64,000 nt of DNA from Thermoleophilia bacterium (lineage in GTDB: Bacteria; Actinomycetota; Thermoleophilia; RBG-16-64-13), in the NCBI GenBank assembly GCA_040768135.1, contig JAXGNF010000003.1:11191-75190 (forward strand). The letters are read 5' to 3'. A program made the translations under genes and the position numbers. Of the stretch, positions 9,153-53,008 are shown one piece after another. The notes below the pieces were generated by a model. It was not told where the DNA came from. It ran no database searches and was given only the letters and a program-made list of their open reading frames with translations. Within the stretch, counting starts at the first letter, position 1; every line of letters begins with the position of its first letter.

Positions 9153-10343
9153 TCACGTTTGGTCGCCCGAAGCCTGTTGAGCACCTGCGTTTTCAAGGCC
9201 GGCCGAGGCGGCAGACCGTGAGGTAGTGGATGCATATGGGGCAGCAGGTACCTGCGGTCCTCCGGTCTGTGCGACGCCGGCCTGGCCCGGATCGACCGGA
9301 ACGGGCTGTCCGACCGAAGCCGCCTGACTGCCCCATCCTTGCGGGTGGGCTTGATAGCGGGCTTGGCGCCGCTCTCGATTCCGGCGCACCAGAATCAGGC
9401 AGATCCGGTAGACAATGAACGCAACCACGGCAAGCACCACCAGCACCGGGATCAACACTCCAAGTCCTCGGATCACGGCGTTGAAGGCCTTCACGAGATT
9501 GTGGAGACCATCTTTCAAGGCCGCGATCACGCCCCAGTCCACACCAGAAGCCAACACCGCTCCGATCTCGTATATAGTCATGGCGATGGTCGAGTAGCCG
9601 GTGTGTTCATCTAGGTAGCGCAGGCGCCCTTTCAAGGCTTCAAGCTCTTCTTGGGCCCGATTGAGCACCGACTGCACGGTCAGAGTGTCGTCGATGGTCT
9701 CGGCCTTGCGGAGGAGCGCAGAGATCGAATCCACGTAGGCCTCGGAGTTCTTTATGCGGGCCTGCAGGTCTACGTACTCCTCCGTAACATCCTGGGTGTA
9801 GAGCGACTGGTTCTTGAGCGTACCCAGCTTGGCGGCGTCGCTCAGAGCCTGGGTGAAGGACGCGCTGGGCACCCGGATGGCCACGGTGCCGCTCCTCATG
9901 GCGTCATCCTCGCCGCCGGCGTAAGAGGTGGAACTGACAAGGTAGCCTCCGTAGCGATCGGCCAGCAGGATGGCCTGATCAAGAACGGTCTCGAACCGGC
10001 CGCGTTCGACTTCGATCTCGAGTTGCGCATCGCTGATTATCTTCTGGCCGGAGACGACGGACGCAGTCACCGCCCCCGACCAAGCTCTTTCTGGAGTCTC
10101 AGTCGAAGAGTATTGCCGAGCTGCCGTACCGCCTCCCCCGTCATAGTCCGCCTGCCCCCGGGTCGCAGTATTCATCGGTGCAGCCGTGGTCGCCGTTACC
10201 CAAGGCGCACCCTCCCCAGCCGGTGTGGTCATGTTCTTGTCGGCCCCTCCACAGCCGACGAAACCCAGCAGCCCGGCCAATCCCAACACGACCAGACCGG
10301 CCGCAACGGTCGTCAACGTCCTTTGTGCCCTTTTTGACCGCAC
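9153..10343 (-). CDS. DUF4349-like lipoprotein with a C-terminal TM helix and a low-complexity tail
   Basis: GTG start at 10341-10343, 6 nt after GAAGGAGG. Signal peptide VRSKRAQRTLTTVAAGLVVLGLAGLLGFVGCGG with a lipobox. The body carries a coiled-coil region and a C-terminal TM (LIPVLVVLAVVAFIVYRICLILV) typical of DUF4349. The first 60 codons of the ORF-track ORF are S/R/P-rich junk. Confidence 0.6.
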   Translation of the reverse strand: MRSKRAQRTLTTVAAGLVVLGLAGLLGFVGCGGADKNMTTPAGEGAPWVTATTAAPMNTATRGQADYDGGGGTAARQYSSTETPERAWSGAVTASVVSGQKIISDAQLEIEVERGRFETVLDQAILLADRYGGYLVSSTSYAGGEDDAMRSGTVAIRVPSASFTQALSDAAKLGTLKNQSLYTQDVTEEYVDLQARIKNSEAYVDSISALLRKAETIDDTLTVQSVLNRAQEELEALKGRLRYLDEHTGYSTIAMTIYEIGAVLASGVDWGVIAALKDGLHNLVKAFNAVIRGLGVLIPVLVVLAVVAFIVYRICLILVRRNRERRQARYQAHPQGWGSQAASVGQPVPVDPGQAGVAQTGGPQVPAAPYASTTSRSAASAGLENAGAQQASGDQT

Positions 10344-10470
10344 AGCCCGCCTCCTTCTCGAGTTCTTTGACCCCTGTGTGTGCTGGGACGGCTTGGCCGA
10401 CCACCCGGTTCCGGGCATAGTCGACCAGAGCCACGAAACGAGAGGAGCCCTTGGGCAGATCGGGCTTGTC

Positions 10471-11052
10471 TTACGAGAGCAGGTCGGCCACCCGCCTGGA
10501 GAGCTTCTGGGCGGTCGCTTTTCCAACCAACCTGTCTATCAGACGACCATCAGAATCGACTACGAAGACGGTGGGCACTGCCTGTACCTTGTACGCAGTC
10601 GCGATATCGCCGGAGTCCATCATGACGGGAAAATCCCAGCCTCCGGTCTTCATGAATTTTTCCATGGCGGCCTCGGTGTCACCTACCGCCAAGACCAACA
10701 ATCCTGCTCTTTGTGATTCGGCTCGATAGAACCTATCGAGTTCGGAGGCTTCCGCTCCGCAGGAGCCTCACCAACTGGCCATGAAGGCCAGCACCAGTGG
10801 TTTGCCCCGATACTCGCCCAGAGAGACGCCCGACCCGTCTAGAGTAACGCCGGCAAAATCGGGGGCTGCATCCCCAGAAACGCTGGAAGGAGTCGCCTGA
10901 CCTGCAGTCGCGTCGGAACCGGTCGCCGCCGGTCCACCGGCGCCGCATCCCGCGAGGAGTCCCACCGCAGCCACCAGAACCAGCGCCACGAACAATCCGG
11001 AGGTAGCCGCCCACGCCACCGGTCGACTCTTGTCACCCATCGCCGCTCTCAT
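10471..11052 (-). CDS. TlpA/ResA-family thiol:disulfide oxidoreductase lipoprotein with an in-frame TGA (putative Sec) replacing the first Cys of the CxxC motif; candidate selenoprotein
   Basis: Two ORF-track ORFs (10768..11199 and 10471..10701) are in the SAME frame, separated only by a TGA at 10768..10770. The joined protein reads ...LLAGCGAGG...APDFAGVTLDGSGVSLGEYRGKPLVLAFMASW-[TGA]-GSCGAEASELDRFYRAESQRAGLLVLAVGDTEAAMEKFMKTGGWDFPVMMDSGDIATAYKVQAVPTVFVVDSDGRLIDRLVG. This is the ResA/TlpA pattern (VLVNFWASWCGPC...) with U in place of C. The ATG at 11050-11052 abuts the lgt stop. A nonsense pseudogene (TGC/TGT to TGA) is the alternative. Confidence 0.6.
10722..10740 (-). promoter_or_regulatory. 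candidate bacterial SECIS-like hairpin downstream of the in-frame UGA
   Basis: mRNA CUCGAUA-GGUUC-UAUCGAG forms a 7-8 bp perfect stem whose apical loop begins GG, about 35 nt 3' of the UGA. This is within the 16-37 nt window of the bSECIS model. Confidence 0.4.
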
Positions 11053-11054
11053 AC

Positions 11055-11864
11055 TCACCGTTTTCCTTTCGCCGTCCCGGACGTCGCCACGAGAGCCTCG
11101 GCCGGCTGATCTATAGGCCCCGCAGGACGGAGCCGTCCACGAGTCCCAAACCACCACATACCCACGATACCGACCACCATCATGCCGATCCCTATCCACT
11201 GCATCTGGGTCAGTCCCAGAGCCATCGACTCATTGGTCCGGATGAACTCGATCAAGAGCCGTTCGAGGCCGTGCAGGAGAGAGAATGCAAAAATCAGGGG
11301 GCCTTCCCGCCTGAACAAAGGCCCGATGACCCAGGCAAGCAGGGCAAAGATGACGAGCGAAGCCACAGTCTCATAAAGCTGCGTGGGATGCACCGGTGTC
11401 GGCGTCGGTGGGATCCCGTGTGGGAATATCATGCCCCAGGGAAGATCGGTGGGAGTGCCGTGATCGCAGCCTCTGAGAAAACAACCGATGCGGCCGACAG
11501 CATATCCGACCGATACCGCCATGGCCCCGCAGTCCATCACCGCGGCCAACCTCTGCTTCGACAGCAGAGTGACTATCACCACTGCAACGATCGCCCCGAA
11601 CAAGCCTCCGAACCAAACCAACCCTTCACCACTCAACAGGTTCCTGGGCCACTGCTCGGGATGGAGAATCAAATAATGGACCTTGGCCCCCAGAAGACCG
11701 CCAACGATGCAGGCGATGAGTAGGCCGTAGATGAAATCGGGGTTGACTCCGCGTTTCTTGAATTGCCAGTGAGCGACGAAGCCCGCAGATATGAATGCGA
11801 GCGCCATCATCACCCCGTATGAATTAAGGGTGAAGCCTCCTATATGCAACAGCTCCGGATACAT
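11055..11864 (-). CDS. lgt: prolipoprotein diacylglyceryl transferase
   Basis: Seven-TM protein with Lgt motifs (GGFTLNSYGVM..., GRIGCFL.GCDHG.P...WG..FP, HPTQLYE). Confidence 0.85.
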   Translation of the reverse strand: MYPELLHIGGFTLNSYGVMMALAFISAGFVAHWQFKKRGVNPDFIYGLLIACIVGGLLGAKVHYLILHPEQWPRNLLSGEGLVWFGGLFGAIVAVVIVTLLSKQRLAAVMDCGAMAVSVGYAVGRIGCFLRGCDHGTPTDLPWGMIFPHGIPPTPTPVHPTQLYETVASLVIFALLAWVIGPLFRREGPLIFAFSLLHGLERLLIEFIRTNESMALGLTQMQWIGIGMMVVGIVGMWWFGTRGRLRPAGPIDQPAEALVATSGTAKGKR

Positions 11865-11981: not shown

Positions 11982-12206
11982 TCAGCTGAAGCCGGAGCTC
12001 GTGGAACAGACCCGAGGCTCGCAGTTGCTAAAGCATGACTGAGAAGCCGAGCCCAGACCCATCACGCCGCCGAAGCCCGTGAACCGCTGCTCGACCTCGC
12101 GCCCGTTGCACTCGGGGCACACCTTAGCTTCGTCCTTCAAAAAACCGAGGACGAACACCTCGAACTCCTTGCCACAAGAACGGCACCTGAGATCATACGT
12201 GGCCAT
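11982..12206 (-). CDS. FmdB-family zinc-ribbon regulatory protein
   Basis: MATYDLRCRSCGKEFEV...CPECNG, the twin CxxC zinc ribbon of the FmdB family. Confidence 0.6.
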   Translation of the reverse strand: MATYDLRCRSCGKEFEVFVLGFLKDEAKVCPECNGREVEQRFTGFGGVMGLGSASQSCFSNCEPRVCSTSSGFS

Positions 12207-12532
12207 TAGACCAACCCGAATTCGCGCTCGTAATCACTTTGGGCGCGGGCCCCGATCAGCTGGCTCTTGAGTTCGCCCCCGCTGAACATGATGACCGTAG
12301 GGATGCTCATGATGCCGAAGCGGGCGGCCAAATCCTGATTGAGATCCACATTCACCTTCACGACACTGACCGTATCAGGGTGGTCAGCAGCCAGCTTCTC
12401 GAGCACCGGCCCCACCATACGACACGGACCACACCAAGGCGCCCAGAAGTCGGCCACCACAGGGACTGTGGACGTAGATATTATCTGGTCGAACTCCTCT
12501 GCGTTGACTTCTTGGACGGTCCCACTACTCAT
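12206..12532 (-). CDS. trxA: thioredoxin
   Basis: From the ATG at 12532 (RBS AGGAGAAGG): MSSGTVQEVNAEEFDQII...VVADFWAPWCGPCRMVGPVLE...IPTVIMF, the canonical WCGPC thioredoxin. The upstream in-frame extension in the ORF track is rejected. Confidence 0.85.
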   Translation of the reverse strand: MSSGTVQEVNAEEFDQIISTSTVPVVADFWAPWCGPCRMVGPVLEKLAADHPDTVSVVKVNVDLNQDLAARFGIMSIPTVIMFSGGELKSQLIGARAQSDYEREFGLV

Positions 12533-27427: not shown

Positions 27428-28201
27428 TCAGGTATTCACACCCAAATCCCCCAAGAGTCCTCTGACCAAACCGCCGAAGCCGGGCTCGGCCACCATGCCT
27501 TGGCGACGAGGACGGGGCAGGTCGACCACCAACTCGCGTTTGACGGTACCCGGCCGGGCACTCAGGACGATGACCCTATCAGCGAGGTACACGGCTTCTT
27601 CGACGTCGTGCGTGATAAATACCACTGTCCTATCGAATTCTTGCCATACGGTCAACAGCCAGTCTTGAAGCTCTCTGCGGGTGAGGGCATCAAGAGCCCC
27701 GAATGGTTCGTCGAGCAACAGGGTCTCGCAGCCAGTGAACCACGCTCTAAGCAGAGCTGCGCGTTGGCGCATACCCCCCGAGAGAGAAGAGGGATAATCG
27801 TGCTCGAAGCCCTCTAGGCCAAAGGGACGAAGCATCTCAAGGGCTGCCGGCCGGGACTCCTTGCGGGGAACACCCTTGATGTCTTGAGATAGAAGTACGT
27901 TATCCAGAACACTCCGCCAGGGCAACAACAGATCACGCTGCGGCATATAACCTAACGTCCCGAGGCGATTTCGGGAGATCTCGCCGTTGATAAGAATCGA
28001 GCCTTCATCAGGCTCCAGCAGACCTACGAGGAGATTGAAGAGCGTGCTTTTTCCGCTGCCGCTTGCGCCGATGATGGTGACGAATTCCCCAGGCATCACC
28101 TTGAGGGACACATCACGGAGGGCCGGAACCGACCGGCCGTTACCCACGAAGGTCTTGCCGACATGACGCAACTCTATGCGCGGAGTGGTCATCTTGAGCA
28201 C
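27428..28201 (-). CDS. ABC transporter ATP-binding protein (ThiZ/SsuB-like, NitT/TauT family)
   Basis: Walker A GASGSGKST, signature LSGGMRQRAAL, Walker B LLLDEPFGALD. Confidence 0.8.
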   Translation of the reverse strand: MLKMTTPRIELRHVGKTFVGNGRSVPALRDVSLKVMPGEFVTIIGASGSGKSTLFNLLVGLLEPDEGSILINGEISRNRLGTLGYMPQRDLLLPWRSVLDNVLLSQDIKGVPRKESRPAALEMLRPFGLEGFEHDYPSSLSGGMRQRAALLRAWFTGCETLLLDEPFGALDALTRRELQDWLLTVWQEFDRTVVFITHDVEEAVYLADRVIVLSARPGTVKRELVVDLPRPRRQGMVAEPGFGGLVRGLLGDLGVNT

Positions 28202-28259
28202 CTGCGACGGAGTGATCCGCCCACACCATCATCCAGACACACAGCCGCGCTCCTCGATA

Positions 28260-29273
28260 CTAGGGCAAGAATCGGTTGGTGAACGCATCTTCGATAATGA
28301 TGGGGGTCGCCACAACGTCGTTCTTGACCAGCCAGTCGGTGTAGTCCTGCCAGACTTCGGTTCTTTGCTCACCCCAGCGGGGAGCTTCGCCCACCAGATA
28401 GGCCGAAAGCCATCTCTGGCTCTTTTTGACGAGTGCGCCATCGAGTTCGGGCACTGCCGCTAGGAGGATGTCTGCGGCTTCATCCGGGTGCTCAGCCGCG
28501 AACGTATATCCCCGCGAAAGAGCCGTGAGCAGTGACTTCGCGAGCTCACCTCGACTTTCCACAGTAGACTCACCGGCGATGACCACCGGGGTGTAGAAAT
28601 CGGGCACGCAATTGAAGTAGTCTTCCATCATGACCACGTTGAGGGCGATCCCCTTCTCTTCAGCCTGAATGCCCTGCCAGCCGTAGTAAATCCAGGCCAA
28701 GTCGACCCGGTTTTCAGCGAGGAGTGCCAACGCGTCCGAGAAGCCCGTGGTCACCATCTTCAGTTTGTCGAACTCAGCGCCCGAACATTCCATCAAAGCT
28801 TTAAGAGTAGGGATCTCGGACGGTGAGCCCCAAGCTCCGTAGCGCAATCCTTCGAAGTCGGCAGGGTCGGTCACGTTGAGAGCGGCCGGTGAAGCAAACC
28901 CCGATGTGTTGTGCTGGAGGACCGCCGCAATGGAGACGATGCGCGCCCCCTCGGCCCGCGCGAGCGTCACGGATTCTTGAAAGCTTATGCCGAAGTCGGC
29001 GGCCCCCCCGGCCACCGCCGCCTCAGGGTACACCTCGCCTGGAGTGATGATCTGGACGTCCAGCCCCTCGTCCGCGAAATAGCCCTTGTCGCTTGCCACG
29101 AAGATGCCGGTGTGGTTGGTGTTCGGTACCCAATCGAGCATGAACTTCACAGGCGTAAACACCTCCGGCGTCGAGCTGCCGCACCCACCGCCGATGATGA
29201 CCACGAATACGAGGACCATGAGTAGCAGTGATACAACCGACGACAGATTCCTCATCTCACCTGACCTCCCCAA
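28260..29273 (-). CDS. ABC transporter substrate-binding protein, NMT1/THI5-like (ThiY-like, likely HMP/thiamine-precursor binding)
   Basis: Signal peptide plus lipobox (GGGCGSS). LDWVPNTNHTGIFVA...GYF is the NMT1/THI5 family signature. It lies in a riboswitch-controlled thiamine locus. Confidence 0.7.
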   Translation of the reverse strand: MGRSGEMRNLSSVVSLLLMVLVFVVIIGGGCGSSTPEVFTPVKFMLDWVPNTNHTGIFVASDKGYFADEGLDVQIITPGEVYPEAAVAGGAADFGISFQESVTLARAEGARIVSIAAVLQHNTSGFASPAALNVTDPADFEGLRYGAWGSPSEIPTLKALMECSGAEFDKLKMVTTGFSDALALLAENRVDLAWIYYGWQGIQAEEKGIALNVVMMEDYFNCVPDFYTPVVIAGESTVESRGELAKSLLTALSRGYTFAAEHPDEAADILLAAVPELDGALVKKSQRWLSAYLVGEAPRWGEQRTEVWQDYTDWLVKNDVVATPIIIEDAFTNRFLP

Positions 29274-29277
29274 CCAA

Positions 29278-30066
29278 CTAGTAGATGCCCTGGCCTTCCC
29301 ACTGTTCTTTTCGCCGACCGGAGTGGTACCAGGGCAGGGTCACGCGCTCGATTCCGTAGACCAACACGAACAGGGCTACGCTCAGCAACGAGGTGACGAA
29401 CATGGCCGCGAACACTTGGTCTGTGGCAAGCGCGTTCTTCGAGCGAAGCAGGTATTGCCCCAGCCCCGGCGAGCCGCCCACCCACTCGCCGACGGTCGCC
29501 GCCACGATGCTGTACGTGACGGCCATACGCAGGCCCGTGAAGAACGAGGGAAGAGCCGAGGGCAGGCGGACCATCCGCCATATCTGTCTCCTATTTGCCC
29601 CCATAGACCGGACGAGAGCGATCAATTCCGGATCAGCGGACGCCAGGCCGTCGGCAGTGCTTATGGTGAGCGGAAAGAAGCAGAAGAGCACCACGATGGC
29701 CACGGTGGGAGTCATTCCAAACCCAAACCAGATGACCAAGATCGGAGCGACAGCCAGTATCTGTATTGTTTGCGATACCACCAGGAGCGGATAAAGAGCA
29801 CGACGGGCCACCGGCCAATAATCTACGAGAGCGGCCAGCCCAATCCCGGCTGTGAGGGCGAGCACCAATCCTATGAAGGTCGCCAGCATCGTGGTGCCGA
29901 CGGCATCAAGCAGCAAGTGTCTCGTCCTCCAACCGGCCTGTACCACATCGAGCGGAGAGGGCAGAATGAATCGACCCACTCCGCTCACCTTGGCCACGAA
30001 GTACCAACCCAAGACCAGTACCACGATGAGCAGCACCGGTGAAGCGATGTCTCTTCGCCGTTTCAT
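29278..30066 (-). CDS. ABC transporter permease (ThiX/SsuC-like)
   Basis: Six TM helices and the EAA-like motif region (ALVRSMGANRRQIWRMVRLPSALP) of binding-protein-dependent permeases. Confidence 0.8.
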   Translation of the reverse strand: MKRRRDIASPVLLIVVLVLGWYFVAKVSGVGRFILPSPLDVVQAGWRTRHLLLDAVGTTMLATFIGLVLALTAGIGLAALVDYWPVARRALYPLLVVSQTIQILAVAPILVIWFGFGMTPTVAIVVLFCFFPLTISTADGLASADPELIALVRSMGANRRQIWRMVRLPSALPSFFTGLRMAVTYSIVAATVGEWVGGSPGLGQYLLRSKNALATDQVFAAMFVTSLLSVALFVLVYGIERVTLPWYHSGRRKEQWEGQGIY

Positions 30067-30123
30067 CTTCCGGCCTGGCTACAGGGAACAGTGAGAAGCC
30101 GGCGCCGTGTCAGTACCGCAGTG

Positions 30124-30510
30124 TCAGTCCCCGCCACTCTCTGCTCCCCGGGTAGGCGGGTCCGTCTGGTCGTAGCCATTATCGCCGGACGCGGAAGCAT
30201 CGCCATCCAGCATGCGTTGGATCTCGCCGACCAACTCATCGCCGGGCATGCCGGCGGCCAGAGTGGCCGTCATCACGGAAGGGCCGCCCCGCTGCGCGGC
30301 GCGGAACGCCGCCCGCAGCGCGGCGAACACTTGGTCTTCGTCGCCCGTCAACAGTGTGCTCAGATTGCCGACGCGCACGGCGCACCCTTCGGCGCGGGCC
30401 GCCTGTATGGCGGCCTCGATGGGTTCGCCGATGCCTGCCTGCCGGAGCGGATAGATAGAGAACTGGCAGCCTAGGATCTGAGGACTTAAGTATCCGGATC
30501 TTTCGCTCAT
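30124..30510 (-). CDS. MTH1187/YkoF-family thiamine-binding protein
   Basis: ILGCQFSIYPLRQ...IEAAIQAARAEGCAVRVGNLSTLLTGDEDQVFAALRAAF matches the ~100-aa MTH1187/YkoF pattern (YPLG...T.IEGD.D.V). It is co-localised with the thiamine genes. Confidence 0.55.
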   Translation of the reverse strand: MSERSGYLSPQILGCQFSIYPLRQAGIGEPIEAAIQAARAEGCAVRVGNLSTLLTGDEDQVFAALRAAFRAAQRGGPSVMTATLAAGMPGDELVGEIQRMLDGDASASGDNGYDQTDPPTRGAESGGD

Positions 30511-30533
30511 CGCAACTACCTTTCTTCCGTTGT

Positions 30534-31172
30534 CTACTTGTCTCGGTAGTGGAACAGTAGGAGAGTGCCTTTCCCGTGACTCACGCGGGCTCGGGTGTCT
30601 ACCATCATGTTGCTGACGCCCCGAGTAGACGACTGAAGGAGCGTCTCACCTCTCAAAGGGTAGAGCAGTCCCTCGGTCACCACCTCATCCACCTCGGGAG
30701 TCAGGGCCAGCAGGGAGACGATGTCTCCGGGTGCCCCCGCGACTTCCGCCTCCCCTTTGACCAGGAAGATCTCGTGCAGTTCGTCGACCAGGCGCACTCG
30801 GACACCCTCCAGCCAGGGTGACGTAAGGAGGAGTAGATTCCCGATGAAGTGATCGAAGCGAGGCCCGCCAAGCGCTCCATACACAGTGATTTCGCCCGCG
30901 CCGCGATCCACGGCGAGCCGCATCGCAACCTCGGTATCAGTCTCGTTCTTCGCCGTCGGTAGGAGCAAGACCTCGACTCCCCGATGCTCCAGCCACCGGC
31001 GGGTCGCAGGATCGATCGAGTCCATGTCGCCCACGAGCAGAGCGGGGATAATGCCCATTCCAACCAGCGCCTGGGCCCCCCCGTCGACGGCCACGATCAA
31101 GTCGGCTTCAACAACAGAGGCGGCATCCAACTCGACCACCGGTCTCGAACCCGCTACTACGACAGCACGCAT
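30534..31172 (-). CDS. thiN: thiamine diphosphokinase
   Basis: LIVAVDGGA...VGDMDSI is the TPK catalytic-domain motif (GD.DS). It is the first gene after a TPP riboswitch. Confidence 0.75.
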   Translation of the reverse strand: MRAVVVAGSRPVVELDAASVVEADLIVAVDGGAQALVGMGIIPALLVGDMDSIDPATRRWLEHRGVEVLLLPTAKNETDTEVAMRLAVDRGAGEITVYGALGGPRFDHFIGNLLLLTSPWLEGVRVRLVDELHEIFLVKGEAEVAGAPGDIVSLLALTPEVDEVVTEGLLYPLRGETLLQSSTRGVSNMMVDTRARVSHGKGTLLLFHYRDK

Positions 31173-31244
31173 GCTCCACTCCTAACTCACTGGGGAACAT
31201 GGGGCTGCATTTTGAACGAAGACACCGACACCGTCAGAAGGCGG

Positions 31245-31335
31245 GCGGGCTATCGCAGATCACCGTTACTTCCCTTCGCTGGCATTACCCAGATCAGGTT
31301 CGCAGGGTCTGTGGCCTAGCCACACTCTCAGCTAC
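31245..31335 (-). ncRNA. TPP (thiamine pyrophosphate) riboswitch / THI element
   Basis: The minus-strand sequence contains GAACCUGAUCUGGGUAAUGCCAGCGAAGGGAAG, the conserved TPP-riboswitch core. It is preceded by ...CACAGACCCUGC (CUGAGA-like) and lies in the 5' leader of the thiN-ykoF-thiXYZ-like operon. Boundaries are approximate. Confidence 0.75.
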
Positions 31336-31684
31336 AAGCTCCCCTAGCAAGGCACATTGAATGTGTGCTTAGTATACCATCGACAACGCACGATCGGCTG
31401 GGACACTATTTTGATAAACAGATATCGCACCGCGTTATAGCGCAACGTGATAGAGTGTTATTCAGTGTCACCGGTCGATCGATTTTTGGGAACTAGCGGC
31501 AGTTCTTCCTGAGGAACTCCTGCAGGTTCTTGGGTTTTCGCGAGGCCGGGAGGCCTGCAGAGTCGGGGGGCGGCCGATTCGCCGGCGTGGTGACCACTCG
31601 AGACCGGGATCACTTGGGAATCGAGGGCGGTGGCGGTCAACGACGCGGGCGGGCGCCGCGATTCGTCCGTATGGAGAGGAGCGA

Positions 31685-32298: not shown

Positions 32299-32618
32299 GC
32301 GCCGCCAAGAAAACAACCTGGGATATCAGCGACATAGACACGTGGGGGCCCGAGAGGCACGAACTCGGAGCGACGATCCCTGTAGCGGGGAACTCCATGG
32401 AGGTCGAGACCGGCGGCTGGCGCTCGCAGGTACCCGTAATCTCCAGCGAGAAGTGCACAGGCTGCATGCTCTGCTACTTCTACTGTCCCGACGCCTCCAT
32501 CATCGTCGAAGACGGCAAAGCGGTGGGAATCGACCTCGACCACTGCAAAGGCTGCGGTATCTGCGCCAATGAGTGCCCGGCCAAGGCCATCGTCATGAAG
32601 ACCGAAGAGAAGGAGTGA
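32295..32618 (+). CDS. porD: pyruvate:ferredoxin oxidoreductase delta subunit (2x[4Fe-4S] ferredoxin)
   Basis: CTGCMLCYFYCP and CKGCGICANECP. Overlapping ATGA junction with porG. Confidence 0.85.
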   Translation: MSAAKKTTWDISDIDTWGPERHELGATIPVAGNSMEVETGGWRSQVPVISSEKCTGCMLCYFYCPDASIIVEDGKAVGIDLDHCKGCGICANECPAKAIVMKTEEKE

Positions 32619-32622
32619 CGAG

Positions 32623-33825
32623 GTGAGCGGACAGAAGACAACCACGCTCGCCGTCACCGGTAACGAAGCCGCAGCGGAGGCAATGCGCCAGATAGACCCC
32701 GACGTGGTCTGTGCTTACCCTATCACTCCACAGACCGAGGTCGTGCAGATCTATGCACAAATGGTAGCCGACGGCAGGGTGACCTCCGAGTTCGTGACGG
32801 TGGAGTCGGAGCACTCGGCTATGAGCGCCGTGATAGGTGCAGCCGCCGGCGGCGCCCGCACTATGACTGCCACCTCTTCCCAGGGGTTCGCCCTCATGTG
32901 GGAACTTCTCTTTGTGGCTTCGAGTTACCGGCTACCAGTAGTGATGACCACAGTCAACCGGGCTCTTTCGGGTCCCATCAACATCCACTGCGATCACAGC
33001 GACACTATGGGTGGTCGTGATAGCGGCTGGATCCAGCTCTATGGTGAAGACCATCAACAGGCCTATGACAACTGCATCCAGGCCGTGCGCATCGGGGAAC
33101 ATATGGACGTCCGCCTACCCGTCATGCACATGTACGATGGCTACGTCATCAGTGGGGCCATAGGGCCTTTGGTCATGCTCACCGACGAGCAGGTCCATGA
33201 CTTTGTTGGGCCCTTCACACCCATCAACCCCCTACTTGACCCTAAGCGTCCGGTCACAGTAGGCCCATTCGACGGTCTGCACGGTTGGTACTTCGAACAC
33301 AAGGTGGCGCAGAACCGAGCTATGGACCGGGCCCTCAAAGTAATCCAGGACGTGGCCGATGAGTTCGCCGAGTTGAGTGGACGGCATTACGGTCTGCTCG
33401 ACCCTTATCGACTCGAAGACGCCGAGATCGCCATTGTAGTGGTCAACTCCACTGCAGGGACAACCCGCATGGTGGTCGACAAGCTGCGAGCGCGGGGAGT
33501 CAAGGCCGGGATGATCCGCATGCGGGTGTTCCGTCCCTTTCCCTACGCCGCTTACGCCAAAGCGCTCGAGCATGTCAAAGTCGTGGGCGTGCTCGATCGG
33601 GCCGACTCCTTCGGAGCACAAGGCGGACCGCTCTTTCTGGAGATCCGAGCGGCCCTCTACGACAACGACCCGCGGCCCCAGGTGTTGCCGTTTGTCTATG
33701 GATTGGGCGGCCGGGACGTCTTCCCGGACAACATCGAGCAGGCATTCGCAGTGCTGGAACAGGCGGCAGCAGGCAAGAAACGGAGCTCGACCGAGCGGCG
33801 CTATCTCAACCTGCGGGAAGACTGA
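32623..33825 (+). CDS. porA: pyruvate:ferredoxin oxidoreductase alpha subunit
   Basis: N-terminal AVTGNEAAAEAMRQIDPDVVCAYPITPQTE is the PFOR domain I signature. 400 aa. Confidence 0.9.
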   Translation: MSGQKTTTLAVTGNEAAAEAMRQIDPDVVCAYPITPQTEVVQIYAQMVADGRVTSEFVTVESEHSAMSAVIGAAAGGARTMTATSSQGFALMWELLFVASSYRLPVVMTTVNRALSGPINIHCDHSDTMGGRDSGWIQLYGEDHQQAYDNCIQAVRIGEHMDVRLPVMHMYDGYVISGAIGPLVMLTDEQVHDFVGPFTPINPLLDPKRPVTVGPFDGLHGWYFEHKVAQNRAMDRALKVIQDVADEFAELSGRHYGLLDPYRLEDAEIAIVVVNSTAGTTRMVVDKLRARGVKAGMIRMRVFRPFPYAAYAKALEHVKVVGVLDRADSFGAQGGPLFLEIRAALYDNDPRPQVLPFVYGLGGRDVFPDNIEQAFAVLEQAAAGKKRSSTERRYLNLRED

Positions 33826-33834
33826 GGTGGGGGT

Positions 33835-34696
33835 GATGACGAACGGAAACGGAGGCAACGGCAAGAGACCACGGGGGGGTGGCCCGAGAGACGCGCATGT
33901 AGCTCAGCCCAAAGGCTCGGCCCTCTACGAGGTTCTGAAAGGGATCGACTTTGAGCGCAGGCAATTGGTGGGTAAGAATCCCTCCATCGGTCTTTTTGAC
34001 CTTGTCAGAAAAGAGGACGGTAGCTATCGCTGTTACTCATGCACCCTCTGCGAGCGCGTCTGTCCGGTGGACTGTATCGAACTCGAATACTGCCCGGAAT
34101 TCCCCGAGGAACCCTTCGATTTCGACGCCGCTCGGGCGGCCGCTTTGACGACGCTCCCGGGGGAGAGTTGTGGAGCTGCATCAGCGTGTGTGATGGGGGA
34201 AGCGCCCGCTCAGTTCGTCCCCGAGATCGACAAGAAGCTCCTTGACCCTGTGATCGCGGGTATCCGGGCGGGATCGGGCCTGGTGGAGGCCCTCCACGCG
34301 ACTCAGGAGGCGTACGGCTACCTGCCGCGGGTGGCTTTGGAGGATATCGCCGAGGAGATAAGCATTCCTTTCTCGCGCGTCTTTGGCGTGGCCAGCTTCT
34401 ACAGCCAGTTCCGGCTCCGGCCGGTAGGCAAATACGTCATTGATGTCTGCATGGGGACTGCGTGTCACGTGGCGGGCGCGCCGCTTATCGTGGAAGCCTT
34501 CAGCCAGGAACTTGAGATCCCCGTCGGGGGCACGACACCAGACGGCCTCTTCACCCTGCAGACCGTCAACTGCGTGGGTGCCTGTGCCCTCGCCCCGGTA
34601 GTTCGCATCGGCGAGGACGAGACGTTCGGCCGCTTGGGTCCTACAGAGGCCCGGCGCCTGGTGCGCAGGCTTCGCAGGCAGGAGGCGGCGTCATGA
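33835..34696 (+). CDS. NuoE/HydC/StnC-like [2Fe-2S] thioredoxin-like ferredoxin subunit with a Cys-containing N-terminal extension
   Basis: ATG at 33835 after GAGGTGGGGG. The core SRVFGVASFYSQF...VCMGTACHVAGA...VNCVGACALAPV is the NuoE fold. The extra roughly 100-aa N-terminal region carries CYSCTLCERVCPVDC. Confidence 0.8.
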
Positions 34697-36612
34697 ATGC
34701 CGCCGGAGAAGCTCGTGCCGCCGCTATCTATGCAGCCCTCGACGCTGCGGCCGACAAGAACGCTTACCTTTCCGACGACACCAAGACCGAGATCCGCCTC
34801 TGTGCCGGTACGGCCTGCCACGCCTCCGGCCGAGTAGCACTACGCGAGGCGGTGGAGAAGGCCCTCGCTCAACGGGGACTCAGCGAACAGGTGAGGGTCA
34901 TCGAGACAGGCTGCCACGGCTTCTGCCAACAGGGCCCCATCATCGTCATCAGGCCCAAGGGGATCTTCTATCCGCGCCTGAAGCCCCAGGACATTGATGA
35001 GATCATCGAGGCCAGCGTGGTGGGCGACGGCGTGGTCGAACGCCTTCTGTACCGACATCCCCAGACCGACGAACCCCTGGCGCTGGAAGAAGAGATCCCC
35101 TTCTATGCCCTTCAGAAGCGGATTGTCCTCAGCCTCAACGGCAAGATCGATCCTTATTCGATCGATGACTATCTGGCCCACCATGGGTACACGGCGCTCG
35201 CCAAGGTCTTGGCCGAAGCCGATCCGCAGGCCCTCATCGCTGAGATTGAGAAGAGCGGCCTCCGGGGTCGAGGTGGCGCCGGTTTCCCGACGGCGCGCAA
35301 GTGGCGCTCATGCCGGGCCAACCCAGGCGACAAGCATTACATCATCTGCAACGCCGACGAGGGCGATCCCGGAGCCTTCATGGACCGCTCGGTACTCGAA
35401 GGCAACCCCCACAGCGTCATCGAAGGCATGGTCATAGCAGCATACGCTATCGGCGTCGATAACGGTCCCGTCGAAGGCTACGTCTATGTACGACGCGAGT
35501 ACCCATTTGCGGTGGAACGTCTGCGCCGGGCTCTGGATCAGGCTCGGGAGAGAGGCCTGCTGGGCCGGGACATCCTGGGCTCGGGTTTTGATTTCGACAT
35601 CCGCATAAACCAAGGTGCAGGTGCCTTTGTCTGCGGAGAATCCACCGCCCTAACCCTCTCCATCGAGGGACACCGGGGCATGCCCCGGGGTAAGCACATC
35701 CGCACCGTGGCCCGTGGCCTGTGGGGTCAGCCCACCAACCTCAACAACGTGGAGACCTACGCCAGCGTACCCTGGATCATCAACCACGGCGCTGAGGAAT
35801 TCGCCGCCGTGGGCACCGCTACCAGCAAAGGCACCAAGATATTCTCACTCACCGGCAAAGTGATGAATGGTGGACTTATCGAGGTGCCCATGGGTGTCAC
35901 CCTGCGAGAGGTGATCTTCGATATCGGAGGCGGTATGCTGCCGGGCCGCGAGTTCAAAGCGGTCCAGCTGGGCGGTCCGTCAGGAGGCTGCCTCCCGGCC
36001 TCGCTCCTGGACGAACCCATTGACTTCGAGAGCCTGGTCGCCGCCGGCTCCATGATGGGTTCCGGTGGCATGGTGGTAGTGGACGACACTACCTGCATGG
36101 TCGATTTTGCCAAGTTCTTCTTACAGTTCACTGCAGAGGAGAGTTGTGGCAAGTGCGTGCCCTGCCGAGTGGGAACCACCCGTATGCTCGAGATACTCGA
36201 ACGGATATCGGCAGGCTTGGCCTCACTCGAAGAGGTCGAACTGCTAGAACGGTTGGCCGACGATGTGGTCGAAGGGTCGCTTTGTGCCCTTGGAGGCAGC
36301 GCCCCTAACCCGGTCCTCTCCACCCTGCGCTACTTCCGGGATGAAGTCGTGGCTCATGTGACCGAGCGACGTTGTCCGGCCAAGGTCTGCCGTCCGCTCA
36401 TCCGCTATACGATCGACAAAGAGGCGTGCACTGGGTGCCGGGCCTGCATCACAGCCTGCCCGACCGGCGCAGTGAGCGGAGAACGCAAAGAGCCCCATCA
36501 CATCGACCAGAAACTCTGTATCCAGTGCGACGCCTGTCGCCAGGCCTGTCGGTTCGACGCCGTCCGGGTTGAGACCGGGATACCGTCGCTCGTCGAAGGG
36601 AGGCGCAGATGA
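34693..36612 (+). CDS. NuoF/HydB/StnB-like NAD(H)-binding FMN subunit with an N-terminal thioredoxin-like 2Fe-2S domain and a C-terminal 2x[4Fe-4S] ferredoxin
   Basis: N-terminal CAGTACHASG...CHGFCQQGP is a 2Fe-2S site. GRGGAGFPTARKW is the NuoF FMN/NADH site. The SLBB and 4Fe-4S region is ESCGKCVPCR. C-terminal CTGCRACITACP and CIQCDACRQACR. Overlapping start/stop with both neighbours. Confidence 0.85.
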   Translation: MNAAGEARAAAIYAALDAAADKNAYLSDDTKTEIRLCAGTACHASGRVALREAVEKALAQRGLSEQVRVIETGCHGFCQQGPIIVIRPKGIFYPRLKPQDIDEIIEASVVGDGVVERLLYRHPQTDEPLALEEEIPFYALQKRIVLSLNGKIDPYSIDDYLAHHGYTALAKVLAEADPQALIAEIEKSGLRGRGGAGFPTARKWRSCRANPGDKHYIICNADEGDPGAFMDRSVLEGNPHSVIEGMVIAAYAIGVDNGPVEGYVYVRREYPFAVERLRRALDQARERGLLGRDILGSGFDFDIRINQGAGAFVCGESTALTLSIEGHRGMPRGKHIRTVARGLWGQPTNLNNVETYASVPWIINHGAEEFAAVGTATSKGTKIFSLTGKVMNGGLIEVPMGVTLREVIFDIGGGMLPGREFKAVQLGGPSGGCLPASLLDEPIDFESLVAAGSMMGSGGMVVVDDTTCMVDFAKFFLQFTAEESCGKCVPCRVGTTRMLEILERISAGLASLEEVELLERLADDVVEGSLCALGGSAPNPVLSTLRYFRDEVVAHVTERRCPAKVCRPLIRYTIDKEACTGCRACITACPTGAVSGERKEPHHIDQKLCIQCDACRQACRFDAVRVETGIPSLVEGRRR

Positions 36613-39600
36613 GCGCACGGACAGACAAAGAGACCCTGGCCGGTGGCTCTGCCAAAGCCACCCTCGGCAGTTCCTTGGGTGACGCTGCCGACGCCGCATC
36701 CCAAGTCACGCTCACAATAGACGGCAAAGAACTCCGTGCCCAAGCGGGCGAAACGGTCCTTGATGTCGCCCGACGTGCGCGAATCTACATCCCTGCCCTG
36801 TGTCACATCGCCGATACTGCCGCCTGGGGGGCCTGCCGTCTTTGCCTGGTTGAGGTGGACGGAGTGGATAAGCTCCAAGCCGCCTGCACCACCTGGGTGG
36901 CCGAGGGTATGGTGGTACGCACCAATACTCCACGTGTACGGGCCCGCCGTGAGAGCTATCTCAAGATGTACCTGTCCGACCACAACGCCTACTGCGAAGC
37001 TCCGTGCTCACATGCCTGCCCGACCCACATAGACATCCCCGCGTATATGGCAGCCTTGGCCGCCGGCGACCCGGACGAGGCCCTCTCCATCGTACTGGCC
37101 GAACTCCCTTTTCCGGGCGTCCTTGGACGGATATGCCCGCGCTACTGTGAGCCGGTCTGTCGCCGTAGCGAAGTAGACGACGCCGTCGCCATCTGCGACC
37201 TACACCGCGCGCTGGGCGACCACGCCGGGCGCGGCCAGGTGCGTCTCCGCCCCGGCCGGCCCAGTGGCCGGCGTGTAGCCGTAATCGGCGCCGGCCCTGC
37301 AGGGTTGTCGGCCGCCTGGTTCCTGGCCGAGAAGGGACACCAGGTGACCATATACGACGAGCACGAAGAGCCCGGGGGCTTACTCCGATACGGTATCCCT
37401 GAGTTCAAACTCCCTCAGCGTGTGCTCGAAGACGAACTGCGGCCGCTCTGGGAGGCGGGGGTCCGCTTCTCCGGGGGGTCGAAGATACCCGCGGTAGGCG
37501 GCGCCGAGAGGCTGCTGGACGCCGGCTTCGACGCAGTCATAGTCGGCACCGGAGGCGGACCGGCGCCCAGAGCCCGTCGAACCGCTAAGGGAGAAAAGGT
37601 GTTGAGCGCCTCCAAGCTGCTTGGCCAGGTGCGCTCGGGCGACGCTGTCTCGCTGTCCCCCAAGGTGATAGTGCTCGGCGACGATGTGGTGGCCCTCGAC
37701 GCGGCCCGGACTGCTCTACGCCTTGGAGCCACAGAAGTAACCGTGATCACGCCCCGCCAGCCCGACGATCTCCCCGCGGGCGACCGCGAACTGACGGCCG
37801 CCTTTGACGAAGGGGTCAGGTTCGAGTTCGGCGCGGCCCACCCCAAGGCCTCCGCGTTTGCCGGCGACGACATCACAGTCATCGTCGAAAAAGAGCGCCC
37901 TACGGCGAAGCCCATAGATGCCCACCCGTCGACGGGGCGCACGGGCGCCCGGGGCGTGTTTGCCGCAGGCGACGCGATCGGTGGTGTTCAGTCGGTGATC
38001 CACGCGGTCGCGAGTGGCAAGCGCACCGCTCTCGCGGTAGACGCTTGGCTGCGGGATGTGGATCTTGACCAGTTGGAGCAAGACCTGGCCGAGTACGAGG
38101 CTCTACCGTATCTGGAGCAGCTCGCGCAGTCAGAGCGGATCGACACTCTGGGCCAACGTCTGGCCGAGCGGACGCCGGTGTGGCTCAAAATGGGAGCGAC
38201 TGCGGAGCCCGCGGGCCGGGCAGCTATGCCCAAGACGGCTAAGGCCAAGCGCCTCTCCGATCTCAACGTCGAAGTAGAGAAAGGCCTTAGCCTGGCGGTG
38301 GCCCAAGAGGAGGCCAAACGCTGTCTACAGTGCGTATGTCCGGCTCTGGGAACCTGCTCACTACAGAAGCTCGGGGTCGAGTACGGTATCACTGCCAACG
38401 AATTGGCGGTTAAGGGTGGCCGGGTACGGGTCGTAGGATCGCAGCATGAGCACCCCTTCATCAGGCGCGACATGGAGCGCTGTATCGCCTGCGGCCGCTG
38501 TGTCCGAGTCTGCCGCGACGTAGCGGGCCCAGCCTGCTACGACTTCACCGGCCGGGGCTTCACCATGAACGTCGACACTCCTTACAGCGAAGCCCTGCAG
38601 CTTGCCGACTGCATCAGTTGCGGGCGTTGTGTGAGCACCTGCCCGACCGGGGCCTTGACTTTCAACGAGCGGAGTCTTACCTCCTTCCGAGTCGACGAAA
38701 GCCGGTGCATCCTGTGCAGGGAGTGCGTGGAGGTCTGCCCGGTGGACGCCCTGGAAGAGACCAATCACTTCGAAGAGGCCCGCCGGAGGTGGCTTGAACT
38801 GGTCGGCAAAGGCAGTCAACTCGCCGGCGGCCACCGCATGTGTGCAGGTTGTGGGGCGCCGATAGTCGTACGCCAAGTGCTCATGGGGACGGACCGCCCG
38901 ACGGTGGTGGGAGCGGCTACGGGATGCCTCGAGGTAAGTACGACTATCTATCCGTACACTTCTTGGAAGGGTGGTTTTATCCACACAGCCTTCGAGAACG
39001 CTGCGGCCACCGTCAGCGGAGTCGAGACCGCCTACCGAGCTTTGCGAAAGAAGGGCACTATTGACGAGGATGTCAGATTCATCGCCTTCGGCGGTGACGG
39101 AGGCACGTACGACATCGGATTGCAGTCACTCTCCGGGGCCATGGAACGAGGCCACCGGATGCTCTACGTCTGCTACGACAACGGCGCTTACATGAACACC
39201 GGTTTCCAGCGCTCGGGCGCGACGCCGATCTCGGCTTGGACCACCACCAGCCCGGTCGGTAGAGAGTCGCCCGGCAAGTTGCAACACCGCAAGAACCTCA
39301 CCGAGTTGATGATCGCCCACGGCATACCGTACGTGGCCCAGGCCTCCCCCCACGATCCCCGCGACCTGGTACGCAAAGCCGCCAAAGCTTTGTCGATCGA
39401 TGGTCCGACGTTCTTGAACGTCCTCTCCCCCTGCCCGCGCGGATGGCGTTCGGACGGCGCCGAGAGCATCGACCTAGCCCGCGAAGCGGTGAACACCTGC
39501 TACTGGCCGCTCTTCGAATATGAAGATGGTGAGTACCGTCTGACCTACCGGCCGCATCACAAGCTGCCTCTGATACCGTGGCTGAAACGCCAAGGCCGCT

Positions 39601-39755
39601 TCGCTCATCTGTTCCAGCCAGGATATGAGGAAGCCCTCGCCAGTATCGAAGCTTGGGTAGATGAGGAGTGGGAAAAGCTGCTGCGCAAATGCGGTGAGCC
39701 CAGCGAGGCCGATTGGCAGGAGCATCTGCAAGAACACGGCTGCCTACTGCGTTGA
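36609..39755 (+). CDS. multidomain fusion protein: NuoG-type [2Fe-2S] ferredoxin + GltD/NfnB/StnA-like FAD-NAD(P)H oxidoreductase + polyferredoxin + C-terminal pyruvate:ferredoxin oxidoreductase beta (TPP-binding PorB) domain
   Basis: Domain order along the 1048 aa. (i) [32 protein letters not shown]...CRLCLVEV is a NuoG/FdhA-like 2Fe-2S domain. (ii) [14 protein letters not shown]...[14 protein letters not shown] followed by [29 protein letters not shown]...GVFAAGD is GltD-like. (iii) Four Cys clusters: [47 protein letters not shown]. (iv) [10 protein letters not shown]...[11 protein letters not shown]...[12 protein letters not shown] is the PorB TPP-binding motif GDG-x(24-27)-N. Confidence 0.8.
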   Translation: [1048 protein letters not shown]

Positions 39756-39822
39756 AGACCCCTATGGAGCCATGACCTACCTCATATCAGCAACGATGTA
39801 GCGTCACGAACGATGCGGCGCC

Positions 39823-41070
39823 ATGCCTGACATAGAGATACGGGCCCCTCGTGAGGAGGAGTTCCCGGCCATCTTGCGGACAAGCAGCGTAGCCTTCGGT
39901 GAAGAGGCAACTGCCGAAGACGCTGAGGTCTACCGAACATCGTTCCCCTTCGACCGGGCTCTTTGCGCATATGAGGGCGGAGACATGGTGGCGACGTCTG
40001 CCGCTTTGCCTATGGAACTAACCTTACCCGGACAGCGCGCACTGCCTGCAGCAGGGATGACCTGGATCGCCACCCTGCCCACCCACCGGCGACGTGGCCT
40101 CCTGCGACGGCTCATGACAAGCCACTTCGTCCAGATGGTCGAACGTGGAGAGCCACTCTCGCTCCTGCTTGCCTCTGAGGGGAGCATCTACTCACGCTTC
40201 GGCTACGGACCCGCCACCAACATCTTGAGTTTCAGTGTCGAACGCCCTTACGCAGTGTTCTCTTGTCCGGTCACCAACAGGGGCCGCCTGAGCCTCCTGA
40301 GTGACGAGGAGGCGGCCGCGGAGCTGCCGCCCCTCTACGATGATCTCAGGCTCCTCCAACCGGGAATGGTCCGCCGTCCCATCTTCTGGTGGCCGCATTA
40401 TCTCCACGATCCGGTCGGCGCGAGAGAGGGCGCCACCAAGATGTACCATGTGAAACATGAGACGGTCCCCGGGGTGGCCGACGGTTATGCCAGCTATCGG
40501 ATTAAGGAGGCTTGGTCCGGCGCGGCCACACCAGCCGGTGAGGTGCAGGTCGTAGAGGTGATCGCCGCAAACCCCGACGTCTACAAAGTACTATGGGACT
40601 ACCTGCTCAACACCGACCTATCTCAGACTACCTCGTGCTGGAGAGGAAGAGTTGACGAGCCGCTCCGCTGGCTTCTGGCCGACCCGCGCCGTTTTGAGAC
40701 AAAGGCTATGGCCGATGACCTCTATCTGCGCCTTCATGACGTGCCCCGCGCTCTGTCCGCCAGGGGTTATCGGGCCTCAGGCGAACTGGTGCTCGCGGTG
40801 ACCGAGGAGTTCTTCCCTCACCCCAGCGAAACCCGCTACCTCCTCCGGGCCGACCCGGCAGCTCTGCCGGGCGCAGAATGCAGCCACACGCAACGAGAAC
40901 CCGACTTAGCGATCTCAATCGATTATCTCGCCGCTGCTTATCTGGGAGGAGTGTCGTTTAGGACGCTGGCGACAGCAGGAAGGGCACGAGAGTTGACCCC
41001 GGGAGCCATCGAACAGGCCGACAAGATGTTCTCCACCGAGGTAGCGCCTTTCTGCTCCACGATGTTCTGA
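39823..41070 (+). CDS. Eis-like GNAT family N-acetyltransferase (GNAT + SCP2-like C-terminal domain)
   Basis: At 415 aa, with acetyl-CoA-binding region HRRRGLLRRLMTSHF and architecture similar to enhanced-intracellular-survival-type acetyltransferases. Confidence 0.65.
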   Translation: MPDIEIRAPREEEFPAILRTSSVAFGEEATAEDAEVYRTSFPFDRALCAYEGGDMVATSAALPMELTLPGQRALPAAGMTWIATLPTHRRRGLLRRLMTSHFVQMVERGEPLSLLLASEGSIYSRFGYGPATNILSFSVERPYAVFSCPVTNRGRLSLLSDEEAAAELPPLYDDLRLLQPGMVRRPIFWWPHYLHDPVGAREGATKMYHVKHETVPGVADGYASYRIKEAWSGAATPAGEVQVVEVIAANPDVYKVLWDYLLNTDLSQTTSCWRGRVDEPLRWLLADPRRFETKAMADDLYLRLHDVPRALSARGYRASGELVLAVTEEFFPHPSETRYLLRADPAALPGAECSHTQREPDLAISIDYLAAAYLGGVSFRTLATAGRARELTPGAIEQADKMFSTEVAPFCSTMF

Positions 41071-41094
41071 CGCACGTCCTCACAAGGAGGGTTC

Positions 41095-41697
41095 ATGCAA
41101 GACCAAGTCGGTCCGAGCCCCAGCCACGCAACGTTCAGACCTGAGCGCGCTCATCGGCTGAACGACGTGCGCCGTTTGGAGACTCAGGTTGCAGAGGCCG
41201 ATCTGGCCCGCCTGCTCGCCCTCAAAGGCAACGAAAACCTGCTGGACCTCGGCAGCGGGACCGGTTTCTACACTGATCGTATGGCCCGTCTCACCACGGG
41301 TGTTGTGTACGCGGTCGACTTCCAACCCGAGATGCACGCGCACCACAGAACTCGTGGACTACCGGTCAATGTACAACAGTTGTCCGCCGACCTGACCGAC
41401 CTTGTCGGTCTTATCATCATACCGGGAAGCGTTGATGTGGCCTGCACTATCACTACCTGGCACGAGATAGGAGGCCGTCTTGACCTTCCGGGCCTTCTCA
41501 GGGTCCTCAGCCCCGGTGGACGACTCGTCGTCATCGATTGGAGAAAACACCCGGAGTCTTGGGACCACGGACCTCCAGGAGATATCCGCTTCACCAAAGA
41601 GGAAGTGGCCTCCTCTCTTCAACGCTACTTCGCCCACGTCGATGCCGAGGACTTGGGTCGCTTCATGTTCGCCGTGGTGGCAAGACGGATCGCATAG
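41095..41697 (+). CDS. class I SAM-dependent methyltransferase
   Basis: LLDLGSGTGFYT is SAM-binding motif I (DxGxGxG), and VLSPGGRLVVIDW is motif III. Confidence 0.7.
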   Translation: MQDQVGPSPSHATFRPERAHRLNDVRRLETQVAEADLARLLALKGNENLLDLGSGTGFYTDRMARLTTGVVYAVDFQPEMHAHHRTRGLPVNVQQLSADLTDLVGLIIIPGSVDVACTITTWHEIGGRLDLPGLLRVLSPGGRLVVIDWRKHPESWDHGPPGDIRFTKEEVASSLQRYFAHVDAEDLGRFMFAVVARRIA

Positions 41698-52828: not shown

Positions 52829-53008
52829 GCCGCCGGTACCGCTTCGAGACTTCGCGTCAACAACGAATCCGTGGAGAATGTACAGCAGTGACTAGACAGT
52901 AATGTGAAAAGAAGGAGAATATATAGCAGCTCTTGTGGCATTACAGCTCAGATACCTTATCATGCTAAAGAGATACCGTTTGCTATGAAGAAGAAAGGAG
53001 AAAGAAGG

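Follow-up and report, generated by a model that had tools for sequence, protein, structure and literature searches.

A TlpA/ResA-like lipoprotein gene with an in-frame TGA codon, predicted to encode a selenoprotein, beside lgt in a Thermoleophilia bacterium

Does an in-frame TGA codon on the minus strand of a Thermoleophilia genome end a short gene, or is it decoded as selenocysteine (Sec) within a longer one? The question is raised by a stretch of 64,000 nucleotides (contig JAXGNF010000003.1 of assembly GCA_040768135.1, positions 11,191 to 75,190), the whole of which is referred to here as the window. Two mechanically called open reading frames (ORFs) of the window, 10768-11199 and 10471-10701, share one frame, and the TGA at 10770..10768 is the sole interruption between them. 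The initial annotation had described this arrangement and proposed a candidate selenoprotein; the sequence and the ORF list agree on the arrangement, and the proposal is supported by orthologs with UGA, by Sec/Cys pairs and by a hairpin linked to the TGA. We conclude, with a probability of about 0.88, that 10471-11052 is one intact selenoprotein gene, here called tlpA, in which Sec insertion itself is predicted from sequence. The features on which the argument turns are the following.

10471..11052, minus strand: TlpA/ResA-like thiol-disulfide oxidoreductase lipoprotein gene, a predicted selenoprotein gene (from sequence, translation, Pfam, NCBIfam and ResA structures).
10768..10770, minus strand: in-frame UGA, codon 95, predicted Sec at the N-terminal nucleophilic position of UxxC (from sequence and translation).
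10945..11052, minus strand: signal peptide with lipobox L-L-A-G-C36 and without a twin-arginine motif (by eye from translations).
10722..10740, minus strand: predicted selenocysteine insertion sequence (SECIS) hairpin CUCGAUAG-GUU-CUAUCGAG with an 8-bp stem (from folding and the alignment of ten TGA forms).
10722..10743, minus strand: invariant 22-nt block GAACTCGATAGGTTCTATCGAG (columns 31-52 of alignment A2, which covers 72 nt around the UGA).
10744..10757, minus strand: weaker upstream hairpin of 5 bp with a GAAG-type loop (columns 17-30 of A2).

Translation of 11052..10471 on the minus strand begins at the ATG at 11052 and, with read-through, extends over 193 codons to a TAA; an alternative start, the GTG at 11058, overlaps the stop codon of lgt. 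Around the interruption the strand reads TTC ATG GCC AGT TGG TGA GGC TCC TGC GGA, which corresponds to F-M-A-S-W-stop-G-S-C-G, and the conceptual peptide across the UGA is FMASW-U-GSCGAEASELDR. The product matches the Pfam families AhpC-TSA (PF00578; 7e-22) and Redoxin (PF08534; 1e-19) and the NCBIfam ResA subfamily (1e-23). Its best matches among solved structures, at 1e-18 to 1e-16, are to ResA (4nmu, 1e-18; 1st9, 1e-16), and the pneumococcal Etrx lipoproteins are also found among the structure matches (2yp6, 2e-16; 4hqz, 5e-15). In the alignment with the ResA structure, the TGA position corresponds to the first Cys of the WCxxC motif of ResA, and the Cys homologs place it identically, as the initial annotation had held. 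W94-U95-G-S-C98, E101 and P160 are invariant across the family and align with ResA. The hallmarks of ResA/TlpA proteins are kept: W94, the redox positions U95 and C98, Glu101 located three residues past the second Cys, and the cis-Pro loop V-P160-T. The lipoprotein signal peptide reported earlier is recognizable by eye from its LLAG-C36 lipobox, and the corresponding position in the orthologs, likewise read by eye from translations, retains a lipobox in each of several variants (LAGC, LSGC, VVGC, LAAC, LGGC and LVGC).

The split could in principle reflect a sequencing or assembly error, or two truly separate small genes. A base-call error could not be dismissed on the window alone, and one assembly of the species (L001, discussed below) is an example of error-prone sequence. 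Five other assemblies of the same species were located through their identical Lgt protein (GCA_040771365.1, GCA_964447185.1, GCA_002049745.1 and two Logan assemblies). Their DNA identity to the window is 98.9-99.9% and TGA is present in 5/5, which brings to six, with the window, the independent assemblies or read sets that agree on TGA, and not TGC or TGT, at 10768-10770. Within the species, all differences inside the thioredoxin domain are synonymous and the amino-acid changes are confined to the signal peptide and the linker (L002-L004, the three good assemblies covering the domain; the sequence of L005 stops shortly past the TGA). Public gene calls cut tlpA into pieces of 94-96 and 56-73 amino acids in every assembly of the species, which is the fragmentation that had been expected of automated annotation. 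If the pieces were two genes, the second ORF could start no earlier than a TTG located 22 codons past the TGA, and C98, E101 and the ELDRFYR segment would stay untranslated, though the Cys homologs conserve them at the protein level. An error or a pair of separate genes thus has close to no chance of being the explanation.

Alternatively, the locus could be a pseudogene, in which a nonsense mutation of the catalytic Cys codon had inactivated a tlpA-like gene. The change from TGC or TGT to TGA requires a single base, automated gene calling yields two fragments, and a Cys-type relative, L011, does appear decayed: its frame is broken and contains stops. The distribution of the codon among more distant relatives, obtained from scans of one-genome-per-species and metagenome collections, argues otherwise. 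Nine further distinct orthologs have TGA at the identical codon within the motif W-U-[G/S/R]-[S/T/G/A]-C and share 48-71% amino-acid identity with the window protein.

L006, L007, L008 and L009: metagenome-assembled genomes (MAGs) labelled Actinomycetes or Actinomycetota, including 'Actinobacteria bacterium RBG_16_64_13'.
L021/L022, L024/L028, L025, L026 and L027: metagenomes.

A divergence of 29-52% at the amino-acid level excludes contaminating copies of a single sequence, and the frames of the nine orthologs are open and alignable as far as the normal C-terminus. In the region 3' of the TGA, the mean proportion of nonsynonymous differences (pN) among the ten TGA forms is 0.27-0.30, versus 0.57-0.63 for synonymous differences (pS), with an uncorrected pN/pS of about 0.47. 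Because pN is lower than pS across the ten forms, the sequence past the TGA is translated and under purifying selection. The TGA is further accompanied by an invariant RNA hairpin, described below. Other orthologs carry TGC or TGT at the Sec codon (L010, L011, L023 and the proteins P0001-P0003 with their loci L035-L037). Among the relatives, JAJFUK01, JAAYCW01, CAWASM01 and MELN01 are of the TGA type and CAWFCL01 is of the Cys type. A crude, unbootstrapped neighbour-joining tree built on the domain places L010 at the base and each of the Cys forms L035, L036, L037 and L023 among Sec forms, a topology that fits a Sec form which arose once and then reverted to Cys repeatedly. Persistence of the codon in ten distinct orthologs down to 48% identity, together with intact downstream frames, makes a pseudogene highly improbable, and the in-frame TGA is almost certainly neither a sequencing error nor a relic of a dead gene.

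The predicted SECIS hairpin lies 30-48 nt downstream of the UGA, with its apical loop beginning 35 nt past that codon. It has a folding energy of -9.5 kcal/mol (z = -3.9 versus shuffles) and can alternatively be read as 7 bp with the loop GGUUC. The published model of bacterial SECIS elements has a loop of 3-9 nt, an (upper) stem of 4-16 bp and a minimum free energy of -7.5 kcal/mol or lower; a G stands among the first two nucleotides of the loop, as a rule with G or U after it, and 16-37 nt separate the UGA from the loop (PMC13188914 Fig. 2 legend). The hairpin falls within every one of these limits, and when it is read with the 7-bp stem its loop, G-GUU-C, displays the pattern N1-G-[G/U]-N-N2 with N1 and N2 able to pair. 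The surrounding 22-nt block, 19 nt of which form the hairpin, is identical at every position in all 10 distinct TGA forms. It codes for E-L-D-R-F-Y-R using codons that are unusual in a 61% GC genome (GAT, AGG, TAT and CGA). Among degenerate codons with an invariant amino acid, the codon itself is invariant at 7/7 in the block, versus 3/30 elsewhere in the domain (hypergeometric p about 1e-5 by our own arithmetic). As judged from this alignment, synonymous variation is suppressed in the block only, which indicates a constraint at the RNA level.

The hairpin also follows the TGA in its distribution. The window has a single copy of the exact 19-mer, all other copies lie in TGA-bearing loci, and the Cys forms encode a similar peptide from different codons, without the hairpin. 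The exception is L036 (TGC, WCGPC; L036:504-1058), in which the 22-nt block is retained about 60 nt past the WCGPC codons with one C-to-G change that breaks a stem pair. This block looks like a fossil SECIS, decaying after a recent switch from Sec to Cys. The weaker upstream hairpin has 86% of cells paired and two pairs with compensatory changes, and its register is lost in the window sequence; judged by eye, a comparable hairpin is possible in the Cys form L037. It is probably incidental or auxiliary. A further hairpin directly past the UGA (10745-10769), strong and specific to the window, obtained by folding the window alone, was rejected as a SECIS owing to its lack of conservation in the orthologs. 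The second hairpin, 30-48 nt past the UGA, is the one that fits the model.

A different account of the read-through would dispense with selenium, the UGA being read as Trp, Cys or Gly through hairpin-stimulated leaky termination or an alternative code. In some systems, read-through of a stop codon can be promoted by a stem-loop that follows it, and no Sec machinery was found in the window or the fetched loci. However, TGA is the commonest stop among the long ORFs of the window, where it terminates lgt and purA, and because it is the most frequent ordinary stop the genetic code is not reassigned. The UGA is located exactly at the catalytic Cys, where a Trp or Gly would kill the enzyme, and the Cys homologs have TGC or TGT at that codon. 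Moreover, the hairpin agrees with all SECIS-specific features, including the G-U start of the loop and the spacing (PMC13188914). Decoding as a standard amino acid is thus improbable, and insertion of Sec at codon 95 is preferred.

Several observations weigh against this preference. ARAGORN, motif scans for SelA/SelB/SelD and Pfam on 40 window ORFs detected neither selA, selB, selD nor tRNA-Sec, in a search that covered the 64-kb window and about 300 kb of related loci. The 35-nt spacing is close to the upper limit of the 16-37 nt range, and the hairpin, being invariant, offers no covariation support. Rfam gave neither a SECIS nor a tRNA-Sec at the gathering threshold in the whole window, and at E values up to 10 on a 161-nt region it returned chance hits only and no SECIS family. 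A ccdA gene adjacent to tlpA is absent in the clade of the window, namely the window itself (10344-10470), L006, L021/L022 and L026. Finally, L001 (GCA_040771365.1, contig JAXGHH010000003.1) has a TAG inside the C-terminal part of tlpA. Compared with the window, L001 shows 52 gap openings in 13 kb and its RtcB and Lon genes are fragmented; its differences are probably long-read indel and substitution errors and not biology.

The in silico criteria by which selenoproteins are recognized in the field are Sec/Cys pairs, homologs elsewhere with UGA and a bacterial SECIS (PMC13188914), and with these we infer the Sec competence of the organism solely from the tlpA gene itself. The window also codes for proteins of pyruvate:ferredoxin-oxidoreductase type and for NuoE/F-like proteins, and the genus RBG-16-64-13, to which the organism may belong, has been placed in anoxic peat (10.1101/2023.07.09.548291). 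An anaerobic way of life would accord with the use of Sec, without proving it.

The genes around tlpA bear on its function and are arranged as follows.

11055..11864, minus strand: lgt, prolipoprotein diacylglyceryl transferase (PF01790), upstream of tlpA in all related loci.
11982-12206, minus strand: FmdB-family Zn-ribbon protein with two CxxC pairs, in all-Cys form, between trxA and lgt.
12206..12532, minus strand: trxA, 108 amino acids, Cys-type with WCGPC, conserved in the cluster.
9153..10343, minus strand: DUF4349 protein of 396 amino acids, the conserved downstream neighbour of tlpA.

The end of lgt and the ATG of tlpA are 2 nt apart and tlpA is probably translationally coupled to lgt. 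The two genes therefore abut as first described, and the Cys-type trxA, at a distance of 1.15 kb, is where it had been placed (about 1.2 kb away). The conserved gene order is trxA - FmdB-type Zn-ribbon - lgt - tlpA(U/C) - [ccdA] - DUF4349. A ccdA gene (DsbD_TM) occupies the bracketed position between tlpA and the DUF4349 gene in loci of both kinds, those with Sec forms (L008, L009, L024 and L027) and those with Cys forms (L010, L011, L023, L036 and L037). No CcdA homolog was detectable anywhere in the 64-kb window, and Pfam on the 40 window ORFs revealed neither cytochrome c maturation genes, resB and resC included, nor Msr genes. Sec forms of the FmdB family (UxxU) are listed in PMC13188914 Table 1. 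In the DUF4349 protein, too, the signal peptide is lipobox-like (LGFVG-C), and a hydrophobic segment is located C-terminally, such that two putative lipoprotein genes follow lgt.

By the standard bacterial pathway, the mRNA hairpin at 10722-10740, within the coding sequence, would recruit SelB with Sec-tRNA(Sec), and the UGA at 10768-10770 would then be decoded as selenocysteine and not as a stop. The 193-residue pre-protein would be exported, and Lgt, encoded directly upstream, would lipidate Cys36, leaving the predicted lipoprotein anchored at the outer face of the cytoplasmic membrane. By homology and synteny, its thioredoxin-fold domain would act as a thiol-disulfide reductase of the TlpA/ResA/Etrx type, and homology assigns the role of attacking nucleophile to Sec95 and that of resolving residue to Cys98 of the UxxC motif. 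Transfer of electrons from thioredoxin through CcdA to a surface thioredoxin-like protein is the standard route of extracytoplasmic reduction, as for ResA and for pneumococcal Etrx/CcdA. The electrons for the tlpA product would presumably pass likewise from cytoplasmic thioredoxin (the trxA product of the cluster) through the CcdA membrane shuttle to the lipoprotein, on the evidence of homology and synteny; the ccdA gene of this genome would be located elsewhere or be missing. Because the ResA/TlpA hallmarks, the conserved lipobox and the gene order trxA-lgt-tlpA-ccdA point in the same direction, we infer that the product is a lipid-anchored surface disulfide reductase with selenocysteine as the attacking residue.

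Four relevant families of UxxC thioredoxin-fold selenoproteins are listed in PMC13188914 Table 1. They include the 'Prx-like thiol:disulfide oxidoreductase' selenoproteins (PF00578, UxxC/UxxU, type member WP_010940744.1; Kryukov & Gladyshev 2004; PMC13188914 Table 1) and the 'thiol-disulfide isomerase-like' selenoproteins of the Sargasso Sea (cd02966 TlpA-like, UxxC; PMC1088965; PMC13188914 Table 1). The predicted tlpA protein belongs with these two by domain and motif. It shares with them the TlpA/AhpC-TSA thioredoxin fold, Sec as the first residue of UxxC, widespread Cys homologs and a SECIS within the coding sequence. In contrast to those families, the tlpA subfamily belongs to uncultured anaerobic Actinomycetota and not to marine bacteria, and its members are predicted lipoproteins fixed beside lgt with an invariant SECIS of their own.

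With ResA of Bacillus (1st9, 1su9 and 4nmu) and with TlpA/CcmG, the protein shares the W-C/U-x-x-C motif, the cis-Pro loop and the Glu three residues past the second Cys; like ResA it has CcdA as a neighbour in orthologous loci, and its predicted location, anchored to the membrane outside the cytoplasm, would also agree with that of ResA. It differs from ResA in having Sec for Cys and a predicted lipid anchor rather than a transmembrane helix, and in the lack of resB and resC nearby. Membership of ResA proper (NCBIfam NF002854) was ruled out, as the score is 84 bits versus a cutoff of 170 and the window contains no cytochrome c biogenesis genes. Etrx1 and Etrx2 of Streptococcus pneumoniae (2yp6 and 4hqz) are likewise lipoprotein thioredoxin-fold reductases. 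They are fed by CcdA and follow the same pathway logic, from thioredoxin through CcdA to a surface lipoprotein. Unlike the predicted tlpA product they are Cys enzymes, and their partner MsrAB2 is not seen at the tlpA locus. The NCBIfam family NF041054, 'ResA-like WAxxUGC motif-containing protein', also consists of ResA/TlpA-like selenoproteins. Membership of it was ruled out: the protein scores 27.9 bits versus a cutoff of 300, the motifs differ (WAxxUGC versus W-U-x-x-C) and the 354-position model is longer. The resemblance to the 'UGSC-containing protein' family (PMC5029168) was judged to be a coincidence of motif, as the orthologs read USSC, USTC, USGC, UGAC and URAC.

No full-length Sec form was present in the protein database that was searched, in which the top full-length matches are Cys forms with at most 55% identity. 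An exhaustive profile search placed 113,202 representatives in the TlpA-like superfamily. In that representative library the tlpA subfamily comprises one full-length Cys form (P0003) and a 96-residue fragment that ends at the Sec position (P0150).

Elsewhere in the window, a scan that also covered the fetched loci found no convincing further gene split by a TGA. The one other in-frame TGA considered, at 41068-41070 on the plus strand (ORFs 39802-41070 and 41071-41697), was rejected as a recoding site since it separates two genes; by eye, the first ORF is acetyltransferase-like and the second is S-adenosylmethionine-methyltransferase-like with a Met start of its own. A thiamine pyrophosphate (TPP) riboswitch (31254-31355, minus strand; Rfam RF00059, 68.7 bits) precedes a cluster of thiamine-related genes (27431-31181, minus strand), which contains the following.

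30537-31181, minus strand: thiamin pyrophosphokinase.
30127-30645, minus strand: YkoF-related protein.
28263-29339, minus strand: NMT1/THI5-like binding protein.
27431-28228, minus strand: ABC ATPase.

An unusual oxidoreductase cluster on the plus strand (32599-39755) encodes a protein similar to the alpha subunit of pyruvate:ferredoxin oxidoreductase (POR; POR_N/PFOR_II), NuoE-like and NuoF-like proteins and a fusion of 1060 residues. The fusion combines Fer2_4, GltD/NfnB-like Fer4_20 and Pyr_redox_2, 4Fe-4S and TPP_enzyme_C (POR beta-like) domains. The cluster possibly specifies a flavin-based, NAD(P)-linked 2-oxoacid:ferredoxin oxidoreductase complex. At 52892-55581 on the plus strand, two paralogs of the uncharacterised family UPF0261 stand in tandem, each with the N- and C-terminal domains.

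UxxC thioredoxin-fold selenoproteins are a kind already known, and the present gene, which is unannotated in public assemblies, leaves knowledge of Sec decoding and of the mechanism of TlpA-type enzymes unchanged. Particular to tlpA are its uncultured Actinomycetota lineage, the predicted lipoprotein anchor and the place after lgt, the frozen SECIS and the visible Sec-to-Cys reversions. We suggest tentatively, and with more doubt than confidence, that it represents a lineage-specific, previously unrecognised selenoprotein subfamily that marks Sec use in uncultured anaerobic Actinomycetota around 'Actinobacteria bacterium RBG_16_64_13'. Its members would be lipid-anchored, cell-surface Sec reductases with a single ancient, frozen SECIS and several independent Cys reversions that left fossil SECIS elements; the clade of the window would have lost the adjacent CcdA and might use a different electron donor.

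For annotation, two meaningless fragments would become a complete surface redox enzyme, and the invariant 19-nt hairpin could serve as a probe for finding the tlpA subfamily. The family may also be a natural test case for separating SECIS from protein constraint, because in the recent Cys revertant L036 the element appears to decay after loss of the UGA. From the gene order, trxA, lgt, tlpA and ccdA may form a compact module that reduces disulfides outside the cytoplasm. For the biology of these bacteria, the finding would mean that a monoderm-type actinobacterial lineage exports a lipid-anchored selenoprotein, and it flags the organism, together with at least four related MAG lineages, as probable users of selenocysteine.

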